From assembly GCA_027485795.1 (NCBI GenBank), contig JAIXQK010000139.1, forward strand, positions 1 through 16,977: a DNA stretch of 16,977 nt. The letters are read 5' to 3'. A model generated the notes under the pieces. The model was not told the DNA's origin, searched no databases, and saw only the letters and a list, made by a program, of their open reading frames with translations. This document shows, one piece after another, positions 1 to 16,977 of this stretch. Origin of the DNA: Oxalobacteraceae bacterium. GTDB taxonomy: Bacteria; Pseudomonadota; Gammaproteobacteria; Burkholderiales; Burkholderiaceae_D. The translations under genes were made by a program, and so were the position numbers. Positions within the stretch are counted from its first letter, which is position 1, and each line of letters opens with the position of its first letter.

Positions 1-1
1 C

Positions 2-1678: not shown

Positions 1679-1699
1679 CGAGCCACTGATCGGCTTGAC

Positions 1700-2290: not shown

Positions 2291-2407
2291 TTGGGCGGTA
2301 TTGCACCGATGCAGCGGCTTGCCATGGCTGCATAACGCTACTTCTACCGACCGTTAAAAATGGGACGATTACCGAAGCAAATTTAAAGTATTACTCGGGA
2401 TTTGACT

Positions 2408-2902
2408 ATGCGACAGTGTATTTTTTTACTGCTTACATTGACTTGTTCGATCTCGACAGCCAGCGATCTCTGTATTGCAAATGAGAGAAATCTGTTCAGC
2501 TGTCGGCTTGAGGCCAACAGAAAATATGTCTCGTTGTGCCAGTCGAACGCCGATAATAGAAAAATAATCTATAGATTCGGAAGGCTAGGGCAGATCGAAA
2601 TATCTCTACCAAATGGTGGCTCACCACCTCCAAAAACCAGCCACGAGAGGATCGGTCCTGCGATTACTCAATGGGTAGAGCATATAATTTTCAAGAATGG
2701 CGAATTTTTATATGTTCTCTCATCGTTGCAAGGAATGTCGAATTCGCTAAATGTTTATAAAGGGAATAGACAGATCGCCGAAATGAATTGTGAATATCAG
2801 ACTGAAGCAGGTTTTCGTATCGTTGAAGTTTCTGAGCTGCTTAGCCGACTTGGTTTCAGCGCCGAAAAAAATTTTTGTTCCGCTTGTCCGTCAGCGTTTT
2901 AA
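2408..2902 (+). CDS. Hypothetical secreted Cys-rich protein
   Basis: The ORF 2402..2902 has its first ATG at 2408, preceded by GGGA. The N-terminus MRQCIFLLLTLTCSISTASD looks like a Sec signal. Cysteines are scattered through the mature part. I recognise no family. The local sequence is AT-rich. Confidence 0.55.
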   Translation: MRQCIFLLLTLTCSISTASDLCIANERNLFSCRLEANRKYVSLCQSNADNRKIIYRFGRLGQIEISLPNGGSPPPKTSHERIGPAITQWVEHIIFKNGEFLYVLSSLQGMSNSLNVYKGNRQIAEMNCEYQTEAGFRIVEVSELLSRLGFSAEKNFCSACPSAF

Positions 2903-2994
2903 ACACTTATCTAGGAAAGTTGTACAATTTTTTAAATCCCTTGGAAAACGAATTAACGAGAGACAAGGCCAAGGGAGTTGGCTCCGACTTAGCG

Positions 2995-4059: not shown

Positions 4060-4077
4060 GATTTACTCGTCTGATAG

Positions 4078-4731
4078 TTAGAACTTATCCGCGTCAGCGG
4101 CGCGCCGCCGCTCTGAGGGCTTCGCCGGGAATGATTGGGGCTCGCTTGAACCTGATTCTGGTCTTGAGCTCGAACCTGAACGATTCATTGATTGGTCGAG
4201 CTGGTCCGCACCAGCCATGCTCTGACGATTAATTCCAACAACGACTTTTACTTCTTCGGACCTCTCATCATAAGAACGCTCAATAATTCGCACACCTCTT
4301 AGGACTGCTTGAGCACTACTTCCAGTCACTTCCTCTAAACTTTCTACGACCTTGCGTGTATTTTCTTTCGTCCAAGATGCGCCCTGGGTGCCAGAAGTCC
4401 GGCTTGCGGTACTGAGACTCTCATCAACTTCACGCAAAGTACGATCTGAACTAGAAACTTGTCGCATGTATCGAGCAATATTGGCCTTGGCTTTTTCTTC
4501 AGCGATTATGTAAGCCTTGTTTATTCCACGACGGTCAGGAAAATCCACTGGATGGAAGAAGGTCGACTTAAGACTTAGCAGTTGTCCACTGGCGTCAAAT
4601 TTCAGCTCCACGCCCAAGCCATCATCTGACACTACGGCTTGATTGCCGCCCTCAATCAATGCAACCCCCGACTGAGATGTTGAGCAAAAGCCAACCAGGA
4701 GCAAAGTAAAGACACAGCGATATAGTTTCAT
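4078..4731 (-). CDS. Hypothetical secreted protein with LPP20/FlgP-like pattern and Ser-rich disordered tail
   Basis: 217-aa ORF ending 19 nt upstream of the next gene on the same strand. Its signal MKLYRCVFTLLLVGFCSTSQSG has Phe at position -1, so it is not a canonical lipobox. AYIIAEEKAKANIARYM...SSAQAVLRGVRIIERSYDERSEEVKVVVGI matches the LPP20-like pattern. The C-terminus is rich in S, P, E and R. Confidence 0.6.
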   Translation of the reverse strand: MKLYRCVFTLLLVGFCSTSQSGVALIEGGNQAVVSDDGLGVELKFDASGQLLSLKSTFFHPVDFPDRRGINKAYIIAEEKAKANIARYMRQVSSSDRTLREVDESLSTASRTSGTQGASWTKENTRKVVESLEEVTGSSAQAVLRGVRIIERSYDERSEEVKVVVGINRQSMAGADQLDQSMNRSGSSSRPESGSSEPQSFPAKPSERRRAADADKF

Positions 4732-4889
4732 GTGTGGTTCTTTCAGTTGATCATTGATCAGAAGAATCTCAAGTCCCCCAAAATGAGTTAAGGTTAGGGC
4801 GACGTCTTTCAGTCCCTAGTCGGGTTTTTACCAGTCGTGCCTATGATTAACAGCTTTTGACTTACGTTTGTGGCTGATTTTTTACGGGA

Positions 4890-5174
4890 TTACTGTGCCG
4901 AACGCTTCGGATTTGCTATTTCGCGTTCTCGAGCTTCGCGCTGTCGTATGGCTTCTGCAATGCGCTTTTGCTTGGCCTCCTCAGCTAGCCTAGCTTGCTC
5001 AACCATTGTTGTATATGACTCGAAATCAGGCTCCACTTTTCGCTCAATTCCGAATAGCTTTTCGACCGTAGAGGCGATCGGGTAGGGCTTACTAGCACAT
5101 CCAGCGCACGTCACTATCATTGCAATATACATTGCAACCAGTTGAGCATTGACAATTGTATTTGGGATTTGCAT
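4890..5174 (-). CDS. Small probable lipoprotein with charged helical tail
   Basis: 94-aa ORF, first gene of the same-strand trio. It has a hydrophobic segment ending in VTCAGC (lipobox-like A-G-C). The C-terminal half AEEAKQKRIAEAIRQREAREREI is a charged helix. The start is uncertain because the SD is weak and there is an internal Met at MYIAMIV. Confidence 0.5.
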   Translation of the reverse strand: MQIPNTIVNAQLVAMYIAMIVTCAGCASKPYPIASTVEKLFGIERKVEPDFESYTTMVEQARLAEEAKQKRIAEAIRQREAREREIANPKRSAQ

Positions 5175-5305
5175 GTGGCCTAATGTTTTTTAACCAGCCT
5201 TATTAGTAATACAAGCCCAAGCGCTTCCACCGGATCAACGATCCCCATATTCATTCGCATTCCATTTACTGACTAGTGACTAAGTTACTTAAGACGCGTT
5301 ACTCG

Positions 5306-5626
5306 TCAATGATAGTTTCCCTGGAAACAATGCCTTACTTCGTGTCCTAGTTCGTGACCGTTTGGTCGTTTTTTAGTAATAATTGTGTAATGATTATCTA
5401 CCCAAAAACTACAAGCTTCTACGCTATAACCGATACCCCCGAGCCCTCTGTGGCGACTTTCCTTTTCACAAGCTTGATTGATATTGTCAACATAAACCCA
5501 TGTTAACTGTATCGCACCGTATTTGTTCTTTTTGGCATCAAATCTGGCCATTGGATCGTTCCATTCTTGAGCCGTAGCGGAGGTCATCGGGATGAGCAGT
5601 GCTGCGGCAAGAAAGATTCGTTTCAT
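5306..5626 (-). CDS. Small secreted HExxH-motif protein, copy B
   Basis: 106-aa ORF MKRIFLAAALLIPMTSATAQE...HELGHEVRHCFQGNYH, a paralogue of 1700..2089. Its stop codon (tca on the + strand, 5306-5308) lies immediately outside the repeat homology. Confidence 0.65.
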   Translation of the reverse strand: MKRIFLAAALLIPMTSATAQEWNDPMARFDAKKNKYGAIQLTWVYVDNINQACEKESRHRGLGGIGYSVEACSFWVDNHYTIITKKRPNGHELGHEVRHCFQGNYH

Positions 5627-5827
5627 GGCAAGTACTCAACGTTATGTGTAAGCCAAATTCACTCGGGCAAGCAACCTCGGGTAATGATATGGTATGGAAT
5701 TAATGACTAAATGTCTACCTCAGGGAAGTCACTCTTAAGAGGGCTCATTGCACGAATTAGTTATCAAAGTCTTATCAGTAAACTGATTTGGCATGTTAGT
5801 ACTTATGAAACGATTGGCACGAGGGCC
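5309..5827. repeat. Diverged 519-bp direct repeat, copy B
   Basis: Colinear with 1772-2290. I count about 28 mismatches in the 201-nt non-coding part, roughly 86 percent identity. Confidence 0.85.
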
Positions 5828-5842
5828 AATCGTCTCGAAATA

Positions 5843-6283
5843 CTATTTGGCAAACCCAGCCCTTAGTGCCCCGCTCGCTGCCTCAATTTGTGGATCGAGT
5901 TCGCCAGCAAGCGTTGCTGCCTTAAGCGTCTGCAGCGTCGTTATCAGCTCTTCGCCCGACGCTAGTTCTATCGCATTTTTTCCCTTGGCTAGTTCAAGCA
6001 CCTTGCTGCCATACTTGACCGAGAGATTGATCTTGCCCGCATCATTAATCCAAAACCATTCCTTTACGCGCTTGACTGCTTCGATGGTTACTCGCTCGCC
6101 AGTCTGTTTATTGGTGACCGTGCGTAGACGCTTGGGGGCGTAGATTTCACCGGCGCGCTGTGCTTCGCAAAGCTCAATTTGCTCGTGGATTTTGGCAGCG
6201 AGTTTATTGCGGCGATGCGCTACTGGCGAGATGGTGCGATTTTTCTTGCTGGCGACAAGTTTTAGTGCGTTGAGGGTACTCAT
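5843..6283 (-). CDS. Conserved hypothetical protein (family I recall from proteobacterial genomic islands; function unknown)
   Basis: The ORF runs 5843..6313. The ATG at 6283 is preceded by AAGGAG with a 5-nt spacer, giving MSTLNALKLVASKKNR...ASGALRAGFAK (146 aa). The N- and C-terminal motifs match a widespread uncharacterised family as I remember it. I cannot verify this without a search. Confidence 0.65.
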   Translation of the reverse strand: MSTLNALKLVASKKNRTISPVAHRRNKLAAKIHEQIELCEAQRAGEIYAPKRLRTVTNKQTGERVTIEAVKRVKEWFWINDAGKINLSVKYGSKVLELAKGKNAIELASGEELITTLQTLKAATLAGELDPQIEAASGALRAGFAK

Positions 6284-6461
6284 GTGTGCTCCTTGTAGAG
6301 TTGTACTGCACACACAAGTTATGACGCTTTTGTCGAGCGGACGACCGGAATCTGCCTTATTTAATCAGCATTTGCCAGATTGCGGTCAGAACCCCACAGA
6401 AATCACATCATGTAGTTAGGATTTTCTTTGGTCTTGATAATTCTGCAGAAACGACAGAAGT

Positions 6462-6725
6462 TTAATATTTGTTGATGTCATCTTCCGTTAGCAGTGTTTG
6501 GTCCGATTTTGTTCTGAAGTACTTGCGAAGGATCACAATCGCAACAAAAGACCCAATAGCAAACACAATGACATCACGACTTAGAGAAAAAGAGCTCGTC
6601 AAAAACTGAACGATCGCAACGCACAGCGTACCAGCTGCGAAGCCTAGGCAAATAAGTGTGAGCGTAAAGATTTCACAAATGACCAGTACGAAGGTCAGGA
6701 TCAGCGATATTTGATAGTACTTCAT
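6462..6725 (-). CDS. Small integral membrane protein, possible NfeD-like partner lacking the OB-fold domain
   Basis: 87-aa ORF starting 7 nt after the SPFH stop on the same strand. It has two or three hydrophobic helices and a short polar tail. The gene order SPFH then small membrane protein mirrors E. coli qmcA-ybbJ. Confidence 0.55.
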   Translation of the reverse strand: MKYYQISLILTFVLVICEIFTLTLICLGFAAGTLCVAIVQFLTSSFSLSRDVIVFAIGSFVAIVILRKYFRTKSDQTLLTEDDINKY

Positions 6726-6732
6726 GACGGCG

Positions 6733-7593
6733 TCACTTTATAAGTTTTTCGATGCCACCACTCAGAGCAGATACGATATCGGTTGGTAGAACAACCAGCT
6801 TGGTATTTGATCCAGATGAGATATCTGTCACCGATTTTGCTTGAATTTTTTTCACCTCAAAGTCGATCGCGCTCTGTCCGCCGTTTGCGATTGCTTCAGA
6901 AACAACTTTGACTGCATAGGCTTCTGCGTCTGCTAGGATCTTTTTTGCTTCAGCTTGTTTTTGTGCGGTGTAGAGATCCGCATCTGCCTTTAGTTGTGCT
7001 GCTTGCTTTTCCCCCTCGGCAGATGTAACTTGCCCACGCCGTTTTCTCTCTGCATTTAGCTGGATTTGCATTGCCTCACGCGTCGACTGATCAACTTCGA
7101 CTTCGGTCACCTCCACGCGAGTCAGCTTAATTCCCCATTCGTCGGCGATATGATTAAGCTCGGATTCAATTTCTGTGACGATCGTTCTTCGATTGGTTTG
7201 TACACCATCAAGGTCAGTTTTTCCGATTAAGCTCCTGACCGTACCCTCGATAACAGTTTTGATGCCAGCCGAGAGGTTTTCGATGCGGTATTTCGACTTG
7301 GATGGATCGATGATCCGGTACAAGATCGCTAGCCGAATATCAATCTGCACATTGTCCTGTGTTATTGCTCGAATAGGGTCCGGGGGCAGTTGGGTTTCTT
7401 GCACCGACACTCGATATCGGATTGTTTCAACAAAGGGTACGATGAGCTGCAAGCCTGCGCCAAGGGTACGGTTGTATTTGCCCAGTCGCTCGACTACCCA
7501 ATTCTCGCTTTGTGGAACGATATTGATCGCAAACTTTAGCGAAATAACAATCAGCGCTGCTAGCACCAGGTAAACCAGTGTTGAAAATTCCAT
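6733..7593 (-). CDS. SPFH / band-7 (stomatin-, QmcA-like) membrane protein
   Basis: 286 aa with AAGGAG 8 nt upstream of the ATG at 7593. It has an N-terminal TM anchor followed by NIVPQSENWVVERLGKYNRTLGAGLQLIVPF...WGIKLTRVEVTEVEV and an Ala/Lys/Glu-rich coiled coil, the typical SPFH architecture. Confidence 0.9.
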   Translation of the reverse strand: MEFSTLVYLVLAALIVISLKFAINIVPQSENWVVERLGKYNRTLGAGLQLIVPFVETIRYRVSVQETQLPPDPIRAITQDNVQIDIRLAILYRIIDPSKSKYRIENLSAGIKTVIEGTVRSLIGKTDLDGVQTNRRTIVTEIESELNHIADEWGIKLTRVEVTEVEVDQSTREAMQIQLNAERKRRGQVTSAEGEKQAAQLKADADLYTAQKQAEAKKILADAEAYAVKVVSEAIANGGQSAIDFEVKKIQAKSVTDISSGSNTKLVVLPTDIVSALSGGIEKLIK

Positions 7594-7740
7594 CGCAGCT
7601 TCTCCTTCGGATTAATCTAAGCCCAATCGCTTCTGGGCTAGTCTCTACGGTCGCCCCACAAATACTACACGAGAAGTATTAGTAATTAAATTGCTATGAT
7701 TTTTGTAATACTAGCGCGTTGGTGGTTAGCACCGTTTTAA

Positions 7741-7813
7741 AAGCCCTACAGCGCGTTTGTATAGGCGCTGGGTATTCTAGGTTGCGCTGCTTAAAAAACA
7801 GCGTGTAGGGCTT
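7741..7813. repeat. Nested inverted-repeat element (10-bp outer stem enclosing two GCGC(T)G hairpins)
   Basis: The outer arms aagccctaca (7741-7750) and tgtagggctt (7804-7813) are perfect complements. Inside, cagcgc/gcgctg (7749-7754 / 7765-7770) and gcgctg/cagcg (7784-7789 / 7799-7803) can form two further hairpins. Confidence 0.5.
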
Positions 7814-7827
7814 GTACAGCATCGCAA

Positions 7828-7852
7828 GTTATCCACATAAGCTGTGGACAAC
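7828..7852. promoter_or_regulatory. 10-5-10 palindrome containing a perfect DnaA box (TTATCCACA) facing a near-perfect one (TTGTCCACA)
   Basis: The sequence is gttatccaca-taagc-tgtggacaac, with one arm mismatch. TTATCCACA (7829-7837) equals the DnaA-box consensus. The site can also be read as 9-7-9, like the core site of a tyrosine recombinase. Confidence 0.5.
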
Positions 7853-7991
7853 GGCTCAGTTTCGCAACAGATCAGCGCCCAACAACTCGGTTGTATCGGC
7901 GTGCACAGAAATGTGGCAATCATCCTACGAGTTTAACAACCACGTTGACTGTTGTGGCTGTTGATTTTGCAACGAGATCGCTGGTGTCTAG

Positions 7992-8025
7992 AACCACATC
8001 AAATGCATGTTTGATGTGGTTTTTT
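7992..8025 (+). terminator. Hairpin plus T-tract (possible intrinsic terminator or protein-binding palindrome)
   Basis: aaccacatcaaa (7992-8003) pairs perfectly with tttgatgtggtt (8010-8021) across the 6-nt loop tgcatg, and is followed by tttt. The stem has only 4 of 12 G:C pairs, so the terminator call is tentative. There is no T-tract on the other strand. Confidence 0.4.
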
Positions 8026-8158
8026 GCTGAGCAGTGCTAAGTCATTGAATTTTGGAAGGAATCATTTTAAGGGTATTCCGCTAAAAATTGGTCGTCCAAA
8101 CAAAGCAAAGAAATTACGCTGTGTATGTGTTTAAGATTTGGTTAGAAAGGACGCACAC

Positions 8159-8731
8159 ATGCCCAAGCAAGCAAAAACCCTTCAAGCCCAAGAATTGCGC
8201 CGAGTGCTGGATTACCTTGCAACGCGCCCTCATGCATTACGTAATCGTGTGATGCTATTAACAACCTATTACGCTGGGCTGCGGGTAGGGGAGGTCGCCA
8301 ACTTACGCTACGGCGATATTGTCGATGGGCTCGGGCATATCCGCGATGAAGTTAGGCTTGATCCCGGGCAGACCAAAGGACGCTTTGGTCGGGTGGTGTT
8401 TATCAATATCAAGCTCAAGCGCGAGCTCGCGGCTTACCTTGCTCGGTTTCCGCAAACAGCCGCAGACCAAAAGTTGTTCGCTACCCAAAAGCGTGCAACT
8501 GGCTTCACGCCCAATACACTGGCGCAGCATTTTTATGGTCTCTATCGCGGCGCTGGCATCGAAGGGGCGAGCAGTCACTCGGGTCGGCGAACGTTTATTA
8601 CCAATCTCGCGAGTAAAGGCGTTGGGGTGAGGGTGCTGATGAGCCTAGCGGGTCACAAGCATATCGGTACGACTCAAGCTTATATCGATGTAAATGATGA
8701 GATGAAGCGCCAGGCAGTGGAACTTGTCTAG
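8159..8731 (+). CDS. Small (190-aa) tyrosine recombinase, catalytic domain only (FimB/FimE-sized)
   Basis: The ATG at 8159 is preceded by AAAGGA; the ORF track begins at a TTG at 8138. The catalytic signature is present: AGLRVGEV (Arg), TKGRFGRVV (Lys), HSGRRTF (His-x-x-Arg), LAGHKHIGTTQAYIDV (His, Tyr). There is no N-terminal core-binding or arm-binding domain. Confidence 0.85.
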   Translation: MPKQAKTLQAQELRRVLDYLATRPHALRNRVMLLTTYYAGLRVGEVANLRYGDIVDGLGHIRDEVRLDPGQTKGRFGRVVFINIKLKRELAAYLARFPQTAADQKLFATQKRATGFTPNTLAQHFYGLYRGAGIEGASSHSGRRTFITNLASKGVGVRVLMSLAGHKHIGTTQAYIDVNDEMKRQAVELV

Positions 8732-9111
8732 TCTCGTTTGACCCAGCGGTGTTCACCTCGCCAGCCTATTTCTTCGTCGGATAGTCCGGTTACGCGTTGA
8801 TAGTTTTGATCGGCTTGGCGCTGAACATCGGCATACCGCATGAATGCTTTGATGATGTCGATCTCGGTTGGCTCAACCGTCTGTGCATCGCGACCTATTT
8901 GAGCAGCAAGATACTTTTGCACCCAAGCGTGTTGCCAAGCTTTGGGATAGACCTTGACAGTCCGCTTGGGTGGTGAAGTGGGGACTGTGGGTGTGGGGAT
9001 TTGGGCAGCCGCTGACTGCTGCTGTTGTTGAATCAAGCGTTTCTGTTGTAGTTGTTGCTGACTGATTTTCAGTATGGGTGTTGCAGCTGGGGCAAATTCA
9101 AGAAAGCGCAT
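8728..9111 (-). CDS. Hypothetical protein with Gln-rich and Pro-rich N-terminal low-complexity region
   Basis: 127-aa ORF with AGGA about 9 nt upstream of the ATG at 9111. It lies downstream of and on the same strand as the 301-aa ORF. I recognise no family. Confidence 0.5.
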   Translation of the reverse strand: MRFLEFAPAATPILKISQQQLQQKRLIQQQQQSAAAQIPTPTVPTSPPKRTVKVYPKAWQHAWVQKYLAAQIGRDAQTVEPTEIDIIKAFMRYADVQRQADQNYQRVTGLSDEEIGWRGEHRWVKRD

Positions 9112-9168
9112 GTTGTATATCCTGGGTAGATCCTATTCCATGTATTTATAGGTTCTAGGATTACGGTA

Positions 9169-10068
9169 TCAAAGTGATTGCAGCAGTAGCCTCGCCTGAA
9201 CCATGGCTTCAATCGCTTTTTGTCGCTTGATCATGGGTTTGACTTTTCGCTCGTAGTAGGTTTTTCGGACGGAAACACCACTGTTGATTTTTTCGCGCCT
9301 GCGATTGTGCGCGATCTTGATCTGCTGAGCTGACAATACCCAAATTTGTTCGTAATTGAATGAAAGACCAGTGTCGATAGGTTCAAGCGACGGGAACACA
9401 CCGCGCGCAGCGTTTTCAGCCAGGTAAAACGATTCCTTCAGATGTTTGCTGACCAATATCCCGAGACTGGTGCGCGCTTCAAGATTATCAATGGTGTTTT
9501 TGGTGGCGGTTTTGAGCTCGTCTGTCCATTTACTTTTGAGCTTCACTTCTACCCCAAGCCGCCAATTTGAGATCTTTTTGCCGGTTTTGCGCTCAATGCG
9601 ACCCTTATCGTTGACTAATGCTAATCGTGCGTGCAGTGCGCTTAGCCGCACTTTATTCGTGAGAAATCTAATTGCCGAGCGCCGCTTGGATGATCGGTCC
9701 GCTTTTGCTTGACGGACAAAGGCGGTGAACTCCGCGATCAGTCTGTTTGGCGATTGTGCCAAGTCCACGGGATAGGCAATCAAATTCCCAGCATCGTTTG
9801 GATCGCGTAGCAAGTCTCTGCCCCGTTCCTCCCACCAGTCTTCGAATTCAGTTTCGTAGATATTTCCGCACAGTTCGTAGATCTCCAACACCCGTTTGAA
9901 GTCAGTTGGGAGTTGTCCTTTCTCGCTTTTCGTTAGTCCAACTGTTCGCTGCCGGTGGGCAAGCTGATAGCTGGGACTTGCTATCAAAAAGTCAAAAAAA
10001 GCCTCTTCCTTGTCCGTTGCATGCCGGGTGCTGGCCAGGAGGCTCAGGATTTTACGGTCAGTATTCAT
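9169..10068 (-). CDS. Hypothetical protein (about 299 aa)
   Basis: The long ORF is 9169..10074. The track start is a GTG at 10074 and the first ATG is at 10068. A perfect TATAAT (10080-10075 on the - strand) abuts the GTG, which puts the ATG about 7 nt downstream and raises the possibility of a leaderless mRNA. The C-terminus is basic. I recognise no family. Confidence 0.6.
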   Translation of the reverse strand: MNTDRKILSLLASTRHATDKEEAFFDFLIASPSYQLAHRQRTVGLTKSEKGQLPTDFKRVLEIYELCGNIYETEFEDWWEERGRDLLRDPNDAGNLIAYPVDLAQSPNRLIAEFTAFVRQAKADRSSKRRSAIRFLTNKVRLSALHARLALVNDKGRIERKTGKKISNWRLGVEVKLKSKWTDELKTATKNTIDNLEARTSLGILVSKHLKESFYLAENAARGVFPSLEPIDTGLSFNYEQIWVLSAQQIKIAHNRRREKINSGVSVRKTYYERKVKPMIKRQKAIEAMVQARLLLQSL

Positions 10069-10210
10069 AAACACATTATATGAAATAAGGTAATTAAGAT
10101 TTTATACAAAAGACAGTTCTTTCGCGATCGGGTTCAATCCGATCCATCGAAACGCCGCAAAGCGCTTCGGTGGAATTCAACCCAATTCATCTTTTGCGAA
10201 AGGCTTTGCC

Positions 10211-11179
10211 ATGACTACAACACTTGCGGCAGTACCGACCCAATCCCTGCCGATCAACGCGCCCACTAGCGCGCCACCGGTGACACTGACCAATCTGTTT
10301 CGACCCAAGGCAGCACAGGCGGCTGAGACCGCACTGACTAAACCAGTTCCAGCTGGCGTGGCGGGCGCTGTCGAGGTGGCGAATACCCTGCTGGCGAGCT
10401 ATGCCCAGCTCAAGGTTGAGGTGCTGGACCGCTCTGACCGTGCTTTATGGGCTTTGCTGGGTGAGGTGTATGCCTATGTAGCGGCGGTGGATGGGTCGCC
10501 CTTGAAGCGCGAGACGCGCGCTGAGTTGATTCGCCAGATTAGCCAACGTACGGGCTCATCGGTTTCCACGGCAGCGACGACTGCTGCGATTGTGGTGCGC
10601 TACATCTTTGCTGACCAATCCCGCCAGACCTGGAGTAACTACACGATTGCCATGGAAAAGGCAGCGGCTTTGGGTGTGACCACCGACAGCTTTGCGGGCT
10701 TTTTGGAGCAGTACGGCGGGGTCACCAAGGTGGTTGAGCACACGTTTGACTACCAGGCTGACGATGCAGCAACGGCTGCTGAGATTGCGCGCGAGCAGCG
10801 TGATACCAAGCAATCTCGCGTGGGCTTGGTGGGTCGCCTATGTACGGCACTGGCACATGCCTCCACGGTACAGCTGACCTATCGCGAGCCTTTGCATGTG
10901 TGGGTTCCAACCAAGCCTAAGAAGGCGGCGAAGGCTGCTAAATCAGCCGGTAAAGATGACAAGCTCGATCCCAAGTTCGAGAAGGGAAAGTTTGTGGTGT
11001 TTTTGACCGTACCGGACACCACAACAGGCACGTACCGAGTGGTCCAGGGCAACGTGTTTAATCGGGCAGTTGAAGAGCAGCTCTTGGCTGCAATGGCTGA
11101 GCGCATGGGTGCTGACGCCGACGAGTTGACCCAAGCGGTCGTCTCGCTTGAGCAAAGCATTAGCGGCGCTGCTGAATAG
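10211..11179 (+). CDS. Hypothetical Ala-rich protein with basic KPKKAAKAAKSAGK linker
   Basis: 322-aa ORF with AAAGG 7 nt upstream of the ATG. It is the first gene of the + strand operon that contains the polymerase-like gene. I recognise no family. Confidence 0.6.
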   Translation: MTTTLAAVPTQSLPINAPTSAPPVTLTNLFRPKAAQAAETALTKPVPAGVAGAVEVANTLLASYAQLKVEVLDRSDRALWALLGEVYAYVAAVDGSPLKRETRAELIRQISQRTGSSVSTAATTAAIVVRYIFADQSRQTWSNYTIAMEKAAALGVTTDSFAGFLEQYGGVTKVVEHTFDYQADDAATAAEIAREQRDTKQSRVGLVGRLCTALAHASTVQLTYREPLHVWVPTKPKKAAKAAKSAGKDDKLDPKFEKGKFVVFLTVPDTTTGTYRVVQGNVFNRAVEEQLLAAMAERMGADADELTQAVVSLEQSISGAAE

Positions 11180-11425
11180 ACCCCACTGTTTATACCCTGT
11201 GGGTCGAGCGTCTGGACACCTTGGGTGTGTCCAGATGCTGGATAGCCCCGTAATCGATACTCGAGTTGAAAAAAAGATCGGAGGATGGAATCGGCTTCGC
11301 CTCTTTCTATCGCTCTTTCCTTCTTTCCTGACCAATTTCTCTTTGCTCGAATTGATGGCAACTACGGGGGTTTGGGAAGCGCAGCTTCCTACTATAAGTG
11401 TGTGTATTTTTTAGAAAGTACAGCC

Positions 11426-12904
11426 ATGTTCAAGATTGTCATCGACCCGATCGTACTGCAGCGGCTCAGGAAGGCGTTTCCAAAGCCACCGCAGTGCGCA
11501 GACAAAGCCTTGGAGAAATACCGGCTATTACTTGAAGACCTCCTATTTAAAGCCATTCAGCGTGGACGCAGTGCCTATGAGCTGCGCTTTAACCTGTATT
11601 CGATCCCAGCCGCTGACTTATCGCATAAGGGTCCGCAGCTATCACTGGGTAAAGAGCGGCTACATGCATGGCTCAAAGCCCAACAGCTCGACCTCATACA
11701 AATCGTTGAGCTGGGTAGCAATCTGAATGGGCTGGTCTCAAAAGTACGACTGACCAACTTGGTCACCATCGATGATGGTTTAACCGGTCTTGCTCAGCAG
11801 CTAAGTTACGCGAAGAGCGCCGCTGAGGTTGACGCATTGCTGTGCGCAGATATGGCTGCGAACGCCAAGTTACTCAGCGAACTGTTCCCCGACTATTTCT
11901 CTTATCTATCAGCCCACCAGCGCGCCCAGGTATTTGACAACGTCCCCATCGATATCGGATCACTCGAAGCCTATATCGTCTGGCTCAATACCAAAGCGAC
12001 CAAGCTATCCGCCACCAAAATCCAGACCTATACCCGGCAGGCAATGATGATTCTGGCGGTTGCCAAGTACACAGGCGGGTATTTCCCAATGCGTAAAAAG
12101 CCAAGCGACTTTGGGCGTATGTATTACACCGGCACCAGTGTCCAGAATGTGGACAAGACGCTGCGACGAGCAATGCTGGGAGACTGCTGGGAATACGACA
12201 TCAAATCCGCAGTCATTGCCTGGAAGTTGACTTTTGCGCAGGAGCTAGCGGCTGCGCTCGATCCTAACCGAGCGGTTGAGCGCCAGTTCTGGGCATCTAT
12301 CTTGTATGTCACTGTGCGCTCCGAATTCATGCGCGATGTTCGTGCTGCCACCTTCGATCAATCAACGCTGCTACCGAGGGACGCACAAAACGCCCTGATC
12401 AAGCAGGCGGTCACCGCCATTGGGTTTGGTGCGCGCGCTAAGACCAGCGGCTGGCGCGAGGTGAATGGTACTTGGACGAATCCCTCCTTGGTCGAGCTAC
12501 TTAAAAACCCCGACGAGCGTAGCCGTTTCTTTGCTTGCCCAATGATTCAGCAATTCATTACCGAGCAGGCAGCACTCGACAAGTACCTGGCTCATGGCAT
12601 GAAGGCAGCGATGCCCGAGGTGTACTTCGGACCCTTAATTACCGCCAATACCAAGCCCAGCCCATCGAAAGCCGTGGCTTACCTCTATCAGCATCAAGAA
12701 ACCCAGGCAATGAATATTGCCCGCGCAGTTCTAGCCAAGCACGGCATACAGCCCATTGCCAACATTCATGACGCGTTCATCGTCAAGCGAAAATTACCAA
12801 CCGATGTGCTGCATGAGGTCATTTTTGAGATGCAGGAGCAGATGGAAAACCCCTATTTTTCCATGAAAGGAGACAAGCTTGAAGGATTCCGATTTGCCAT
12901 TTGA
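11426..12904 (+). CDS. Compact (492-aa) polymerase-like protein of the T7-RNAP / Pol I (family A) superfamily
   Basis: The ORF is open from 11285, but its first 47 codons are low-complexity and the ATG at 11285 abuts GGAGG with no spacer, so I start at Met 11426 (MFKIVIDP). Hand alignment from memory finds five matches. (1) DFGRMYYTGTSVQNV versus Pol I TGRLSSxxPNLQNI and T7 DWRGRVY. (2) Motif A, EYD258IKSAVI. (3) Motif B, K326QAVTAIGFG versus T7 KRSVMTLAYG. (4) YQHQETQAMNIARAV...KHGIQPIANIHD449AF versus T7 HSQDGSHLRKTV...KYGIESFALIHDSF. (5) The C-terminus GFRFAI versus T7 DFAFA. Confidence 0.6.
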   Translation: MFKIVIDPIVLQRLRKAFPKPPQCADKALEKYRLLLEDLLFKAIQRGRSAYELRFNLYSIPAADLSHKGPQLSLGKERLHAWLKAQQLDLIQIVELGSNLNGLVSKVRLTNLVTIDDGLTGLAQQLSYAKSAAEVDALLCADMAANAKLLSELFPDYFSYLSAHQRAQVFDNVPIDIGSLEAYIVWLNTKATKLSATKIQTYTRQAMMILAVAKYTGGYFPMRKKPSDFGRMYYTGTSVQNVDKTLRRAMLGDCWEYDIKSAVIAWKLTFAQELAAALDPNRAVERQFWASILYVTVRSEFMRDVRAATFDQSTLLPRDAQNALIKQAVTAIGFGARAKTSGWREVNGTWTNPSLVELLKNPDERSRFFACPMIQQFITEQAALDKYLAHGMKAAMPEVYFGPLITANTKPSPSKAVAYLYQHQETQAMNIARAVLAKHGIQPIANIHDAFIVKRKLPTDVLHEVIFEMQEQMENPYFSMKGDKLEGFRFAI

Positions 12905-13739
12905 TATTGAGTTTGACCGTGCTCTTAAAACTTTTGAGGAAAACATGACGACCTATCTGATCTTGACAGCGCCTGTTCCAGGCAATCGTGAAATATCAGC
13001 CGATACCAACGAGTCACTGGCATGTGAAATTTATGTAGCTATGTCGGGGCTAGCACCGGGCGACCGTAACCATGTAGCTTTGGCGTTAGCATCCGCACCC
13101 CAATCGATCGCGTTAGATCCTAGCCAAGCCATCGCTACGCTATCGATTCATACCAGTGGGTTAGTGCTATGGAAGCAGCGCTATCGCGCAACCTATATCT
13201 GCGCCCATCAACTTCACCTAGCAGCGATCGATCACGACTGCGAAGCGATCATTACCCACGCCGAGCAGTTATCAGTGCTTCTTGAGCAGGCAACTGAGCT
13301 GGGTGAGTATGACTTAACCGATCGTCTGGGCATCGATCGCTGCGGGGACAACTTTGACAACGAAGCGAATGCAGTCTTTGAAATCGCTGAAGAGCTTGAG
13401 GCGATTCTAGGATGCACAATCGCCGCCACACCCCAAGACGGGGGAGGCGAATTCGATGCGATTTGCTCCAACTGTGGCGAGCCGATGCACGATCATGGTG
13501 ATGAAGCCGCCTGGCACGTGGTCACCGCACAGGTTGCGGATGGTCACCCCTGCGATGTGTATTTCATATCTCACAGCATGGAGGAGGTCGATCAATTTGC
13601 AGCAGCAGTCCGTCCCAGGCTTGTGTGCACCAGTGCCTATACAACCTTAAGTGAGGCGCAGGCATTTGCTGATCAGCATTTACAGGGGTATGACGAAATC
13701 GATCCGAATGCAATGCATCTTTCGGATAACTTACATTAA
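12879..13739 (+). CDS. Hypothetical acidic protein with a Cys/His cluster (CSNCGEPMHDHGDEAAWH)
   Basis: 286-aa ORF from the TTG at 12879, with AAGGAG 6 nt upstream, overlapping the polymerase-like gene by 26 nt. The alternative start is the ATG at 12945, preceded by GAGGA. I recognise no family. Confidence 0.55.
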   Translation: MKDSDLPFDIEFDRALKTFEENMTTYLILTAPVPGNREISADTNESLACEIYVAMSGLAPGDRNHVALALASAPQSIALDPSQAIATLSIHTSGLVLWKQRYRATYICAHQLHLAAIDHDCEAIITHAEQLSVLLEQATELGEYDLTDRLGIDRCGDNFDNEANAVFEIAEELEAILGCTIAATPQDGGGEFDAICSNCGEPMHDHGDEAAWHVVTAQVADGHPCDVYFISHSMEEVDQFAAAVRPRLVCTSAYTTLSEAQAFADQHLQGYDEIDPNAMHLSDNLH

Positions 13740-14218
13740 TCTGTCTGCTGTAGACGCGCGAGTAGAAGCTGATGCCCAAGCTCACGCAAAGCAGCTTCAG
13801 TGTCCATCTTCTTGACACGACCCGTGTCAAATGTGAAGTCGGTGTAATTACCTTTACTGCTAGCGGTGATGGTGATTGCGCCGACTTCTGTCTTTGTGGC
13901 GTACTTTGCCGTAAAGCGTGGAATTAGATCAGTCGCGACGACCTCGTAGCTCACTTCGCTAGCAATGCCGCTATTGCTGGGCATTGCCCAATAGCCGACC
14001 ATATCGTCATAGCAGCGGTTCTTCAGTCTATCGACGATGAATGCGGCATCTTTGGAGCTGACATGCTTCAGCTGCGGTAGCTCACCCGACAAATCCTCTC
14101 CCGCTACTAGACGCTTTTTCACGCCATCGAAAAACTTCAAATCGGCTACGCGATCGCTGCAACGGCTTAACGCAGTCGCAGCGTGTTCCTTCAGGTAGTC
14201 GATTGCTTCTTGGCTCAT
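13736..14218 (-). CDS. Hypothetical protein (160 aa), downstream of the integrase on the same strand
   Basis: Clean ORF with no competing frame and no recognisable motifs. Its stop overlaps the stop of the convergent 286-aa ORF (ttaa). Confidence 0.55.
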   Translation of the reverse strand: MSQEAIDYLKEHAATALSRCSDRVADLKFFDGVKKRLVAGEDLSGELPQLKHVSSKDAAFIVDRLKNRCYDDMVGYWAMPSNSGIASEVSYEVVATDLIPRFTAKYATKTEVGAITITASSKGNYTDFTFDTGRVKKMDTEAALRELGHQLLLARLQQTD

Positions 14219-14310
14219 GAGATTTTTCGGTCGTGGCGGTAGGTATCTGTTTCGGGGTTTTTTTGCTTGTTGAGTCAGACGTGCAGGGTAGCGCAGGCTA
14301 CGGGGTTTTG

Positions 14311-15699
14311 CTACCGCTTTTGTTTCTTTATAGCGGCGCTACTGAGCTCTTTTTCCAGCTCCTCCGCAGCACGGGGATTGGCTTCAGTTAGGGTGATATG
14401 GATGCCCGTTGTGGCAGTGATAAGGCTCATAACGTCAGCGCGGACTGGGGAGATTTGGGCAAGTCGGCGGATTTCCTCAGCTTCAGCCGTTTGGGCATCG
14501 GGCATAGCGCCCGCTAGCTGCTCGGCAATCATCAGCGGTTTCAGATGGCTGTAGTGCTTTTCAATCATCGCCACTGAGGTTCCCATCTGGTTCGCTAGCT
14601 GTCCGAAGCTGACACCTTCTAAGATACGTTGTGTCGCGTAGTAGTGCCTGAGGCTATATAGACTGCGGGCTTTGCCATCTTTGTCGCCTTTGCTCATCCC
14701 GCATTCAGCCAAGCAGTCGGCAAAGGAATTGACCAAGTTGTAGGGTTTTGTGCCGTCTCGCAGCTTAAACAGCAGTTTGGGTGACTTGCTGGCAACGACC
14801 TCTTCCAGCGTCATATCGGCAAAGTCAGCGTCTAGCTGGCGAAGCTTCTCTAGCAGCGCCCACAGCTCATTCCTAGCAATCAGTGTGCGGCTCCCACGCT
14901 TACCCTTCGGCAGCGTGATATGGATGACCCGCATATTGGGCTTCTGCACGAATTCAATGTGCTTCCAGCACAAATCTTCAGTTTCGGTCCCAGGTCGTAC
15001 GCCAGTACACGCAACGAAGGTCACGTACAAGCCCAATAGCTCCCGTAACCAGCGGCTACGCTCGGTGCGGGCATTGGCGCTCCATTGCTGGATGAATGCC
15101 TGCAGCTCTATCAGTTCGTCAGTGCTGAATGAGCCTCGTGACTGAGTAGCGCCACCCGTATTCTTTAGCCCAGGTCGTTGGCTCTCGGTCATATAACTCT
15201 TTTCGATGGCGTAGTCGAAAACAGCGTTCAGGGCAGCATTGTGATTGTTCTGTGTACTAGCTTTGAGTTCGTAGCCAACCTTTTCCTTACGCCACCGATG
15301 AAACTCACTGACGATAGCAGGGGTGATCCGGTCGATGTTGTACGCACCGAAGAAGGGGATGAGGTAGCTATCGATAGCGCGATGGTAGTCGGCGTAACTT
15401 TTTTTGCCTGTACCTGCGTTCACTTCTTTCTTAAATCGTTCGCTTACGAATCGTGCAACGCTCGCGAACTTTTTACTGACTACTGCTAGTCCGCGTTTAT
15501 TTAATACGCGTGCTTCGTGAAATAAGTCTTCAGCGATTCGCTTTGCTTCGTCGAGGTGAGGTGTGCCTGATGTCTTGCGGTACCAATTTTTCGTAGCACC
15601 AATCTTGTAATGTATCTGCCAGTTCTTTGTTTCGGGGCGACGAATCAAGTTCAGCTCTTGTTCGCGCAGAACGACAGTTTCGCTTGATATATCAGGCAT
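14311..15699 (-). CDS. Tyrosine integrase (phage/genomic-island type), tRNA-Lys adjacent
   Basis: 462 aa. The catalytic region reads ACTGVRPGTE (Arg), LYSLRHYYAT (His-x-x-Arg context) and MGTSVAMIEKHYSHL (Tyr). It has a long N-terminal arm/core-binding region. The gene begins 163 bp from the 3' end of the tRNA. Confidence 0.9.
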   Translation of the reverse strand: MPDISSETVVLREQELNLIRRPETKNWQIHYKIGATKNWYRKTSGTPHLDEAKRIAEDLFHEARVLNKRGLAVVSKKFASVARFVSERFKKEVNAGTGKKSYADYHRAIDSYLIPFFGAYNIDRITPAIVSEFHRWRKEKVGYELKASTQNNHNAALNAVFDYAIEKSYMTESQRPGLKNTGGATQSRGSFSTDELIELQAFIQQWSANARTERSRWLRELLGLYVTFVACTGVRPGTETEDLCWKHIEFVQKPNMRVIHITLPKGKRGSRTLIARNELWALLEKLRQLDADFADMTLEEVVASKSPKLLFKLRDGTKPYNLVNSFADCLAECGMSKGDKDGKARSLYSLRHYYATQRILEGVSFGQLANQMGTSVAMIEKHYSHLKPLMIAEQLAGAMPDAQTAEAEEIRRLAQISPVRADVMSLITATTGIHITLTEANPRAAEELEKELSSAAIKKQKR

Positions 15700-15702
15700 T
15701 TA

Positions 15703-15748
15703 TGTGAATTTTTAGCATTGTGTCCTGAGTGTAAAGTAAAAATTCACA
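15703..15748. promoter_or_regulatory. Perfect 12-bp inverted repeat immediately upstream of the integrase start codon
   Basis: tgtgaattttta (15703-15714) and taaaaattcaca (15737-15748) are exact reverse complements separated by 22 bp. The proximal arm ends 3 nt from the int ATG at 15699. Confidence 0.45.
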
Positions 15749-15809
15749 ATGGGCAAAGAAATGAACTGTGCGACAACTGTGTAACGCTAAAAATGCGCAA
15801 AAAATAGGC

Positions 15810-15840
15810 AAAAAAAATGGCTCATCCGAAGATAAGCCAT
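15810..15840 (-). terminator. Intrinsic terminator of tRNA-Lys
   Basis: On the - strand, AUGGCUUAUC-UUCG-GAUGAGCCAU forms a 10-bp stem with one G.U pair and a UUCG tetraloop. Seven unpaired U follow. The hairpin begins 21 nt after the tRNA CCA end. Confidence 0.7.
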
Positions 15841-15861
15841 TGATTTTTCTGCTATTTATTC

Positions 15862-15937
15862 TGGTAGGTCGTGCAGGACTTGAACCTGCGACCAACGGAT
15901 TAAAAGTCCGCTGCTCTACCAACTGAGCTAACGACCC
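15862..15937 (-). tRNA. tRNA-Lys (anticodon UUU), 76 nt with encoded CCA
   Basis: The reverse complement reads GGGTCGT TA GCTC AGTTGGTA GAGC A GCGGA CTTTTAA TCCGT TGGTC GCAGG TTCAAGT CCTGC ACGACCT A CCA. This is a full cloverleaf with a G1.U72 wobble and anticodon loop CT-TTT-AA. Confidence 0.93.
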
Positions 15938-15947
15938 GAAGCCCGCA

Positions 15948-15977
15948 ATTATACTAAGTCGGAAAAACTTTTGTCAA
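15948..15977 (-). promoter_or_regulatory. Consensus sigma70 promoter for tRNA-Lys
   Basis: On the - strand, TTGACA (15977-15972), an 18-nt spacer and TATAAT (15953-15948). The GC-rich discriminator tgcgggc follows. The mature tRNA 5' end lies 10 nt past the -10 hexamer. Confidence 0.7.
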
Positions 15978-16071
15978 TCAGGGTCTTATCGCTTTTATAT
16001 GTTCGCGATGCCCTCTATTCCATGTGAACGGCTTGATTACGCAATCATGCACGGGCAGTCCTGCCAAATCC

Positions 16072-16977
16072 TCACTTAAGCTCAGACAACAGCTCTTTTC
16101 CCGTTTTTGCCGCCGGACTGGTGGGGAAGCGCTTAATCAGGTTGTTGATTGTCTGTCGAGCCGCTGCTTTGTCTTTCAGGTCCCTTTGACACTCAGCTAG
16201 GCTGAGCATGGCATCTGGGGCGCGTTGACTATTGGTAAAGCGAGAGACGATAGTTTGAAACGCCGGCATCGCACTCACGCAGTCTTGCAGAGCATAGTGG
16301 CTAGAGCCCAACCAGAAATAAGCCTGCGCCAAGTTACTCGAATCCGGAAAACGCTTCAGGAAGTCGGTAAAACCTTGCGCTGCTGCTCGGTAGTTTTCCG
16401 ACTTAAAATGACCCAGTGCCAGATCATAGGTTTTTTGCTCTGACAAGCGTTCATCCGCATCCGGCGGTGCGATTGCAGTAGACGAATCCCCCGCTTTGGT
16501 TGGGGTAGCAGGCTTGCTATCCAAAGTCGATTGCTTGTTTTCCAGCGCCTGCTGACGGGTCTCAACAGCGGCGTATTTCTGGTCAAGCGCACCAATGCGC
16601 TGGTCAAGGTCGGTGTAGAAATCTTTTTGGCGGCGCTGAGTATTCGCGATGTCGTTGGAGACCACCTCAAGTTGGCCACGCAAGCCGGCGAGGTCTTGCC
16701 GTAGCTTGTCAATTTCCTCACTAAGCTTCAGCAGCGCCTTGGTATCTGCTTTGCCATCGATACGCGCAGCTAGCGGTTGAAGCTTGGTGTCGACCTCTTT
16801 TTGCAAGGCGTCCAGCTTCGCATCAATCCGGCTTGATAGTTCATTGACTTGCTTGCGCAGATCGAGCAGCGAGCGGCGCGCGTCAACATCCTCAAACAGC
16901 GCGTGCGCGTTGATCGGCATCAAAATGAAAAGCGCCGCCATGGCGGCGGCGCGTAGTTTCAGCAACGAGGCATTCAT
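16072..16977 (-). CDS. cpoB: Tol-Pal system cell-division coordinator CpoB (YbgF)
   Basis: 301 aa. It has the signal peptide MNASLLKLRAAAMAALFILMPINAHA, a long coiled coil (LDLRKQVNELSSRIDAKLDALQKEVD...) and C-terminal TPR-like repeats (YDLALGHFKSENYRAAAQGFTDFLKRFPDS...AQAYFWLG...APDAMLSLAECQ). A tRNA-Lys gene also follows ybgF in E. coli. Confidence 0.85.
   Translation of the reverse strand: MNASLLKLRAAAMAALFILMPINAHALFEDVDARRSLLDLRKQVNELSSRIDAKLDALQKEVDTKLQPLAARIDGKADTKALLKLSEEIDKLRQDLAGLRGQLEVVSNDIANTQRRQKDFYTDLDQRIGALDQKYAAVETRQQALENKQSTLDSKPATPTKAGDSSTAIAPPDADERLSEQKTYDLALGHFKSENYRAAAQGFTDFLKRFPDSSNLAQAYFWLGSSHYALQDCVSAMPAFQTIVSRFTNSQRAPDAMLSLAECQRDLKDKAAARQTINNLIKRFPTSPAAKTGKELLSELK

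Follow-up and report, generated by a model that had tools for sequence, protein, structure and literature searches.

What kind of polymerase is encoded by a small genomic island that is linked to a tRNA gene and has no helicase or primase genes, and what might such an enzyme do there? The question is raised by a 16,977-nucleotide (nt) stretch of DNA from an Oxalobacteraceae bacterium (GenBank assembly GCA_027485795.1, contig JAIXQK010000139.1, positions 1 to 16,977 of the forward strand), referred to below as the window, which holds a tRNA-Lys-linked island. Within it, a gene at 11426-12904 on the plus strand encodes a protein of 492 amino acids (aa) that an earlier note, made from the sequence alone, had read as a half-size member of the superfamily of T7 RNA polymerase (RNAP) and DNA polymerase I (Pol I, family A), belonging to no described element class. 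We find that a described class does fit, namely the TV-Pols, which Iyer, Abhiman and Aravind defined in 2008 as nuclease-free polymerases of a minimal family A type, carried by mobile elements of bacteria (PMC2579912). The window protein is part of a large, unannotated, sequence-orphan clade of such minimal family A/TV-Pol-like polymerases, with a distinctive active site and a distinctive partner, and is neither a new class nor a half-size T7 RNA polymerase. The assignment draws on the open reading frame (ORF) itself, its homologues, an AlphaFold2 model and Foldseek comparisons.

The fold carries the main weight of this assignment. An AlphaFold2 model made with 50 homologues (predicted local distance difference test score (pLDDT) 85.7, predicted template modelling score (pTM) 0.73) was compared with the PDB using Foldseek, and the best 50 matches were all family A DNA polymerases (E 3.8e-6 to 5.8e-4, probability 1.0), with alignments spanning 344-599 columns. 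They included Klenow, T7 DNA polymerase (DNAP), Taq, Bst, Aquifex Pol I, M. smegmatis Pol1, Pol theta and the apicoplast polymerase. We regard this model-based evidence as decisive for a family A right-hand polymerase fold, as the earlier note had foreseen; of the profile searches and structure prediction for which that note had called, the former gave no significant sequence match and only the latter led to family A. Since T7 RNA polymerase was not within the best 50 PDB matches, the fold appears nearer to the DNA polymerases and TV-Pols than to T7 RNAP.

A search of BFVD pointed towards viral relatives. The top two matches were uncharacterised proteins of uncultured tailed phages that are themselves family members (E 1.7e-24, template modelling (TM) score 0.66), and most of the next-best matches were replication proteins of virophages and giant viruses (E 1e-9 to 5e-6), such as the Zamilon 'DNA replication protein', the Qinghai Lake virophage 'helicase/primase/polymerase' and a Pyramimonas orientalis virus protein. 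Classical phage PolA ranked below the virophage proteins (E 1e-6 to 1e-4). The primase-helicases of Sputnik-type virophages carry an N-terminal TVpol domain (PMC3671162).

In the model, whose residues we number from Met 11426, a family-specific N-terminal alpha/beta region (approximately residues 1-170; 11426-11935, +) appears to stand in place of an exonuclease or promoter-binding domain. The secondary structure then suggests a putative two-helix thumb (helices 177-189 and 196-215; 11954-12070, +), positioned just before an Arg hairpin whose strands, 219-226 and 232-235, flank R231 and which precedes a helix (244-251) bearing R247. D258 lies near the C-terminal end of strand 254-260, the modelled fingers extend over approximately residues 263-440 and include K326 and F334-G335, and a long helix (413-438) bearing Q422 and E425 leads to a hairpin (445-447/450-453) with H448-D449 at its turn. 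The predicted enzyme would accordingly be read as some 170 family-specific residues and a core in which a short thumb of two helices and the Arg hairpin are followed by a palm bearing both catalytic Asp and by fingers with a Lys and a helix that ends in an aromatic-Gly pair. Because this core measures approximately 320 aa, the half size of the protein is explained without loss of palm, fingers or thumb. No exonuclease family was matched by the window polymerase in Pfam, NCBIfam and PHROG scans, which supports the earlier view of a polymerase without a recognisable exonuclease. Its small size also leaves no room for T7-type promoter-recognition modules, as that view had held.

Active-site residues were near-invariant across the family down to approximately 21% identity. 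Conservation was counted in a 374-sequence family alignment that includes phage relatives at 21-34% identity, with a 58-sequence alignment used in addition. R231, R247 and G335 were invariant (374/374); D258 and K326 were each kept in 373 sequences, F334 and E425 in 372, Q422 in 371 and Q240 in 365, while H448 and D449 were kept in 370 of the 371 ungapped sequences. With R231, D258, K326 and H448-D449 near-invariant in 374 sequences, the residue pattern is far beyond chance. The earlier note had located D228-F-G-R231, D258, K326 and H448-D449 correctly and had assigned them to the Arg hairpin and motifs A, B and C, residues that are kept in at least 370 of the 374 relatives; its 'Q423-E-T-Q' is also present, with the numbering one off (Q424-E425). 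The fingers hold a conserved acid, E380 (366/374), and no invariant Asp was seen in them. In the 58-sequence alignment Y32 and G97 were at least 90% conserved, phage relatives included.

These residues can be set against those of Pol I, for which the reference numbering was confirmed on E. coli polA (R668, Q677, D705, E710, R754, K758, F762, Y766, Q849, H881-D882-E883), and of T7 RNAP, confirmed on T7 gene 1 (D537, K631, Y639, H811-D812). The Arg hairpin and its helix, F-G-R231-x-Y-Y with Q240 and R247 (12080-12166, +), are the counterpart of Pol I T-G-R668...Q677. D258 (12197-12199, +) is proposed as the catalytic Asp of motif A on account of its conservation and of its position and topology in predicted strand 254-260, the profile alignment described below being shifted by seven residues and unreliable here. 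The end of motif B and the O helix, K326-x3-T330-A-I-x-F334-G335-A336 (12401-12433, +), is marked by conservation and by model helix 318-333. Q422 and E425 (12689-12700, +) lie on the long helix before motif C, Q422 pairing with Klenow Q849, and H448-D449 (12767-12772, +) provide the motif C catalytic Asp at a beta-hairpin turn, as indicated by conservation, hhalign and the flanking strands. The distance from K326 to D449 is 123 residues, compared with 124 between K758 and D882 in the E. coli polA sequence, just as the earlier note had reckoned.

The active site is nevertheless not that of Pol I. The steric-gate position 263 (D258+5, Klenow E710) is V in 305 sequences, A in 38 and I in 21, and is never E. 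The O-helix Arg (R754) is missing, the residue at K326-4 being variable (E/P/D/V/L/N); the F762 counterpart (K326+4) is Thr; and motif C reads H-D-A/G/S, with Ala, Gly or Ser at the counterpart of E883. Of the motif B pattern R-x3-K-x3-F-x3-Y-G, only the basic K326 and the aromatic-Gly pair F334-G335 are conserved. In addition, the stretch from Q240 to R247 is six residues shorter than Klenow Q677-R690. The C-terminal G-F-R-F-A-I, which had been likened to the T7 'foot', is not conserved among relatives, which end otherwise or carry variable extensions, and this likeness was set aside as chance.

We also compared the family with Pol I by profile alignment. The family profile comprised 374 sequences and the PolA profile 10 (E. 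coli PolA, T7 DNAP and eight diverse phage PolAs), and hhalign joined family positions 226-473 to E. coli positions 663-908 in one colinear alignment with a score of 32.2 (P 0.003). Eight controls, made with reversed profiles and unrelated island protein families, scored 13-25.5 (P up to 0.027), and the genuine remote pair of PolA and T7 RNAP scored just 16 in the same set-up. The alignment pairs R231 with R668, Q240 with Q677, Q422 with Q849 and H448-D449 with H881-D882, in agreement with the Arg-hairpin and motif C pairing of the earlier note. A shallow profile compared with the single sequences of Klenow, T7 RNAP and T7 DNAP gave local, non-significant matches; the sole near-significant one (E 0.015) placed H448-D449 on H811-D812 in motif C of T7 RNAP.

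The register of motif B is ambiguous by sequence, since hhalign twice set K326 on R754 and F334-G335 on F762-G763. The earlier note had put K326 on K758 and F334-G335 on Y766-G767. In Klenow, Taq and T7 RNAP alike, Y-G closes the O helix. We infer the register K326=K758 and F334-G335=Y766-G767, and favour it because model helix 318-333 stops just before F334-G335 and because a Y/F-G pair at Lys+8/+9 is common to Klenow (Y766-G767) and T7 RNAP (Y639-G640); the Klenow Gly at Lys+5 (G763) is Thr in T7 RNAP.

The polymerase ORF is a real gene, and its start can be assigned. A longer ORF at the same locus (11285-12904, +) is opened by ATG 11285. Homologue lengths are mostly 490-499 aa, a length of 492 aa is called for most members of the 90% cluster of the window polymerase, and the family alignment opens at Met 11426; because these three agree, Met 11426 is taken as the start, and the ORF and numbering used in the earlier note hold. 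The 539-aa product from ATG 11285 was rejected on the same grounds and because the GGAGG that abuts this ATG directly has an unworkable spacing. Upstream, a 16-nt inverted repeat (88% complementary, 7-nt spacer) occupies window positions 11204-11242, just past the stop of a 322-aa ORF and approximately 185 nt before the polymerase start, without a T-run after it; it could be an operator or attenuator.

The closest precedent is the TV-Pol family. One subset of TV-Pols has lambda-type integrases, resolvases or transposases as its linked genes rather than helicases, and TV-Pols were predicted from gene context to be primase-polymerases of replicative mobile elements (PMC2579912). The window protein shares with them a minimal family A-like domain in a protein of the 400-600 aa size class, the lack of a recognisable nuclease domain, an Arg-bearing beta-hairpin (R231, strands 219-226/232-235) and an RRM-like palm with two conserved Asp (D258, D449), the palm being included in the region matched by fold. 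It further resembles them in its hosts, bacterial mobile elements with lambda-type integrases and viruses, the window gene being flanked by integrases near a tRNA; in an extra N-terminal domain, as found in the integrase-linked subset; and in that its best annotated structural neighbours are virophage and giant-virus proteins of the TV-Pol-helicase type. TV-Pols have four defining features, of which the Arg hairpin and the two Asp are present here. A third, a thumb centred on two antiparallel helices, is suggested by the model's secondary structure, in that the consecutive helices 177-189 and 196-215 before the Arg hairpin may pack in this way. In contrast, the fingers motif RxxxK is reduced to its Lys and no invariant fingers Asp is present, no D5-type helicase is adjacent, or fused in any of the 374 family sequences, and the modelled N-terminal region mixes alpha and beta elements, in contrast to the all-helical prediction for TV-PolN. 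DUF6641, a recurrent partner of the window family described below, is not mentioned in the 2008 paper.

A second comparison is with CcPol, an A-family polymerase of SCCmec that primes DNA synthesis de novo when bound to its small partner MP (Bebel 2020, PMC7581432). CcPol uses deoxynucleoside triphosphates (dNTPs) only and keeps the equivalents of E710 and F762 (PMC7581432). Like the CcPol-MP or 'PolA-SSB' systems of Bacillota, the window family combines an A-family domain without a working exonuclease with an integrative element bearing site-specific recombinases, has a small protein encoded directly downstream in most loci, and is shortened in the segment before motif A; a shortened helix in the Q677-R690 region has been linked to room for the initiating triphosphate (Bebel 2020, PMC7581432; Rice 2023, PMC10061031). 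The two differ in that CcPol is a recognisable truncated Pol I (NCBI PolA domain, 15-22% identity), whereas the window family is invisible to Pfam and has no E710 or F762 equivalents. Moreover, MP is an OB/beta-barrel SSB (a protein that binds single-stranded DNA), a match that DUF6641 did not give; the SCC operon always comes with a helicase, while none was found in window-type islands; and the recombinases are serine enzymes in SCC and tyrosine enzymes in the window islands.

With Pol I/Klenow and phage family A enzymes the window polymerase has in common the right-hand fold, the Arg hairpin (R668), Q677, the Asp of motifs A and C, the H-D pair, the Gln of helix Q (Q849) and an O helix that ends in an aromatic-Gly pair. 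It differs in having no recognised 5'-3' or 3'-5' exonuclease and no PF00476 match, in its family's lack of the E710 steric gate, R754, F762 and E883, and in a distance from Arg hairpin to motif A that is approximately 10 residues shorter. With T7-like single-subunit RNAPs it shares the superfamily, the motif C form I-H-D-(S/A)-F, the K-x7-(Y/F)-G spacing and the absence of a Glu steric gate; but at 492 aa, compared with 883 aa, it is approximately 390 aa shorter, has neither a promoter-binding N-terminal domain nor a specificity loop, carries Phe (F334, 372/374) in place of Y639 and does not conserve a C-terminal foot. Pipolins are integrative elements with tyrosine recombinases, often at tRNA genes. 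The resemblance to them is by analogy only, their hallmark enzyme piPolB being a family B polymerase and so without homology to the window polymerase; it is described as self-priming, with no separate primase (Redrejo-Rodriguez 2017, as cited in Rice 2023). The 2023 reclassification of PolA starts from already recognised PolA sequences and does not cover proteins such as these (PMC10201439).

The family is sizeable. Its close homologues number 268, and clustering the matches with E below 1e-3 at 50% identity yields 782 clusters; all the polymerase homologues are annotated 'hypothetical' and have no Pfam domain. They reside mostly in islands of freshwater Burkholderiales, with further relatives in uncultured tailed phages. 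Relatives with lengths of 470-614 aa are encoded on 28 IMG/VR contigs. Both phage contigs that were sampled for such genes (L095, L101) also hold genes for terminase, portal and virion proteins, and no other recognisable polymerase, primase or helicase was present in the sampled parts of phage contigs L095, L101 and L115. With one contig excepted, the island partner genes are absent beside the phage-borne relatives. A tblastn search of isolated phages and plasmids gave no match to the window polymerase, and one phage relative gave a partial match to Desulfovibrio phage 7757 as its sole match. A second homologue search, with a diverse alignment, returned close relatives only and did not reach the named TV-Pols. 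Many distant and phage members (P0120, P0184, L101:9380-11224; alignment columns approximately 917-960) have a C-terminal extension with a conserved H-x3-I-x2-EE-like helix, which the window polymerase does not have.

The earlier note had also proposed a survey of genomic neighbourhoods. We analysed 88 related loci, nearly all from freshwater Burkholderiales (Limnohabitans, other Comamonadaceae, Oxalobacteraceae and Polynucleobacter); locus counts are given out of 89 and tRNA-adjacency counts out of 52. The polymerase recurs with integrases, DUF6641 and DUF6876, and behaves as a conserved core gene together with the integrases rather than as variable cargo. The element family carries one to three tyrosine recombinases, and a tRNA gene, most often tRNA-Asn, flanks the element in 24 of 52 loci. 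DUF6641 is present in 58 of the 89 loci, usually directly downstream on the same strand, DUF6876 in 41 and a 161-aa family in 36. Among 80 proteins of conserved neighbour clusters there was no Pfam helicase, primase or SSB. Several copies of the polymerase element may share a genome, with three on contig NCJK01000002.1. In single genomes three or more diverged copies were seen (L013, L024 and L048 on that contig; L070, L073, L090), their polymerases being 40-54% identical to the query, which suggests repeated independent acquisitions at different tRNA sites and not recent duplication. In one subgroup (P0105; L006:7420-9163, L007:5657-6640) the polymerase adjoins umuD-like (Peptidase_S24), umuC-like (IMS) and DUF3024 genes.

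DUF6641 is tied to the polymerase because the two are fused in one lineage. The fusion protein of 650 aa (P0151; L128:1948-3900, L129, L130) is identical in three independent SRA runs and joins a polymerase at residues 4-477 to a DUF6641 domain at 509-645. It is encoded in a unit of approximately 5 kb that holds just a 194-aa recombinase, an 84-aa ORF, the fusion and a 429-aa integrase, and that may be the minimal form of the element. A DUF6641 profile had no match in the PDB, and a literature search on DUF6641 and DUF6876 found nothing. DUF6641 is unusually conserved, its best 120 matches being 74-97% identical, while the polymerase drops to 42% over the same ranks.

Taken together, we consider it slightly more probable than not that the window protein is an element-encoded minimal family A primase-polymerase that copies its own element. 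The analysis shows the family A right-hand fold, an intact two-Asp/Lys active site under strong selection, the standing of the gene as a core gene of a multicopy tRNA-integrating element, and the tie to DUF6641. Catalytic activity, de novo initiation, a replicative role and substrate sugar specificity are all matters that we infer, and the primase-polymerase role is suggested because no primase or helicase was found in the element, because TV-Pols have been predicted to be primase-polymerases, because the A-family CcPol primes with a template-holding partner, and because the segment Q240-R247 is six residues shorter, which may leave room for an initiating triphosphate. After excision or transfer, the polymerase would copy the element's own DNA, beginning new chains de novo where that DNA is single-stranded or opened and then extending them, and the host replisome would possibly take over. 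DUF6641 would be a likely accessory subunit, and the single-stranded template may be held by it, by the N-terminal domain or by both.

Several observations weigh against this reading. Neither the protein nor a 50-sequence profile found anything in Pfam, NCBIfam or the PDB by phmmer and hmmsearch, even at E 1-10; Pfam scans of 30 distant family members gave no polymerase family, PADLOC did not match the window polymerase, and PHROGs gave a single faint match, phrog_4756. The family hidden Markov model found nothing in E. coli PolA, T7 DNAP and T7 RNAP, nor in the 1-50 kb of Ma-LMM01, where a 506-aa ORF beside transposases was included, and named TV-Pols could not be linked to the window family at the sequence level. 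With hhalign, a P of 0.003 is no more than modest, and the Foldseek TM-scores to the PDB are low (0.3-0.44), as expected of a multi-domain hinge protein. With the O-helix Arg and the F762 and E883 equivalents absent, the enzyme could be only weakly active or act differently. A helicase, an SSB and a recognisable origin are all missing from the islands, and no iterons were found in them. As to the proposed subunit, the AlphaFold2 model of DUF6641 (pLDDT 73) matched no OB fold or other structure at E<0.1 in Foldseek, and DUF6641 is approximately 10 times commoner than the polymerase (2831 compared with 268 matches). Since it is so much more abundant, it is not a dedicated polymerase subunit and must also occur in elements without the polymerase.

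The choice of sugar bears directly on the first alternative. The hydroxyl of T7 RNAP Y639 selects ribonucleotides. Judged from sequence, loss of the Glu gate and an H-D-A motif C point towards tolerance of ribonucleoside triphosphates, whereas F334, where T7 RNAP has Tyr, points in the opposite direction. It is conceivable, though on balance unlikely, that the protein is a ribonucleotide polymerase and serves as a dedicated RNA primase or, as a DNA-dependent single-subunit RNAP of very small size, transcribes element or phage genes. Position 263 is V, A or I and never Glu, the F762 equivalent is Thr and H-D-A/G/S resembles the H-D-S of T7 RNAP, while the dNTP-only CcPol keeps both the E710 and F762 equivalents (PMC7581432). 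RNA-primase activity has been proposed for ancestral TV-Pol-like enzymes (Iyer et al., PMC2579912), the only near-significant single-sequence hhalign match was to motif C of T7 RNAP (E 0.015), and relatives occur in phage contigs of 26-42 kb with no other polymerase in the parts examined. Yet the PDB contains many T7 RNAP entries and none came within the best 50 fold matches, the Y639 position is Phe in 372 of 374 sequences, a specificity loop or promoter-binding domain would find no room, and a FAFA-like C-terminal ending is not conserved. No repeated promoter-like motif was found in the island, which also speaks against a transcriptase.

Two further alternatives move away from replication. 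A non-replicative accessory function, whether DNA synthesis in anti-phage defence or abortive infection or a repair or translesion polymerase, seems to us distinctly improbable. A defence role has been raised for PolA-type primases borne by mobile genetic elements (Rice 2023, PMC10061031), kinase/TPR or CHAT/TPR genes lie near some islands, one subgroup adjoins umuD/umuC-like genes, and the islands have no helicase or origin that could be found; but PADLOC gave no matches, and the gene sits in the conserved core with integrases and not in variable cargo, persists in an element of approximately 5 kb with nothing else and is also found in phage genomes. It is very improbable indeed that the polymerase fold is catalytically dead and reused as a DNA-binding or initiator scaffold. 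The equivalents of R754, F762 and E883, universal in family A, are missing, as such a scaffold would allow, whereas both Asp, the Lys, the Arg hairpin and the aromatic-Gly pair are invariant over approximately 780 clusters and down to approximately 21% identity, which is expected solely under selection for catalysis.

If the primase-polymerase reading is extended, the enzyme might be a minimal self-sufficient polymerase with a core of approximately 320 aa that starts chains de novo with ribonucleotides, the template being held by the N-terminal domain and/or DUF6641, which would do duty for a promoter-binding domain, a helicase or an SSB; this more ambitious version is speculative and rather doubtful. 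Were the family to initiate with ribonucleotides, it would be the smallest RNA primase/RNA polymerase of the T7/Pol I superfamily and would stand near the ancestral state proposed by Iyer et al. The concept of a minimal mobile-element polymerase has been in the literature since 2008, when a place close to the root of the Pol I/T7 RNA polymerase superfamily was predicted for such enzymes, and CcPol, a recently truncated Pol I, is the only mobile-element polymerase of such a kind to have been studied biochemically. The present clade is large (approximately 780 clusters), compact, confidently foldable and found in cultured Limnohabitans strains, and is thus experimentally accessible. Having an active site without the residues that make Pol I DNA-only and primer-dependent, it is a good test case for the minimum protein needed for templated synthesis and de novo initiation, for the origin of sugar selectivity and for the way in which small islands that integrate at tRNA genes manage to replicate with neither helicase nor primase. 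As an initiating polymerase of very small size, it could potentially also serve as a tool.

In the window itself, the island reads from right to left as a cpoB/ybgF-like chromosomal gene, tRNA-Lys, a 462-aa integrase, a 160-aa ORF, a 286-aa acidic ORF and the polymerase, followed by divergent ORFs of 322 and 301 aa, a 127-aa ORF, a 197-aa recombinase, a Band 7 gene and DUF6641. As the earlier note had observed, it lacks helicase and primase genes: the nine island proteins scanned had no such match in Pfam, NCBIfam or PHROG. The tRNA-Lys(UUU) gene (15862-15937, -; ARAGORN, Rfam) is the probable integration target, and beside it lies the large tyrosine integrase of 462 aa (14311-15699, -; PHROG integrase E 1e-28, Pfam SAM-like domains), found in 27 of 89 loci. 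A search of the whole window for a second copy of the tRNA-Lys 3' end (att repeat) found none, and hence no left att site. The A+T-rich spacer between integrase and tRNA-Lys (15699-15860) contains an 11-nt tandem repeat, ACGCAAAAAAT, in 2.9 copies at 15784-15815 together with several inverted repeats, and these are candidate integrase arm sites. The small tyrosine recombinase of 197 aa (8138-8731, +; Pfam Phage_integrase E 2e-25) is a core gene, present in 51 of 89 loci. The DUF6641 protein (5843-6313, -; Pfam PF20346), a candidate accessory partner, is encoded here approximately 5 kb from the polymerase and on the other strand.

Directly upstream of the polymerase is the conserved 322-aa element gene (10211-11179, +; 30 of 89 loci), and divergent from it the conserved 301-aa gene (9169-10074, -; 37 of 89 loci). 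Neither has a family or PDB match: the 322-aa family profile gave nothing significant against PDB sequences, and nor did the 301-aa profile, whose best match was a faint MarR-like one (E 0.02). Downstream, the 286-aa acidic protein (12879-13739, +), seen solely in two near-identical contigs, is likely cargo; its TTG start by rule overlaps the polymerase stop, and the true start is probably ATG 12937, with GAGGA 5 nt upstream. The 160-aa protein (13736-14218, -) lies just downstream of the large integrase on the same strand, and its cluster occurs in 25 of 89 loci.

The left part of the window holds further genes. On the minus strand at window 6462-7593, the gene for a 286-aa Band 7/SPFH protein precedes an 87-aa ORF; among the loci examined the pair occurs solely in this variant and is likely cargo. 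A 300-nt direct repeat of 79% identity (window 1772-2071 and 5309-5608) codes for a pair of small paralogues (minus-strand ORFs 1700-2089 and 5306-5626) with signal-peptide-like N-termini; close to the C-terminus each shows a conserved HExxH-like motif, H-E-L-G-H, and neither has a Pfam match. At the far left, a protein with TPR and CHAT domains (Pfam CHAT E 3e-59) is encoded at window 50-1678, in an ORF that may pass the window start.

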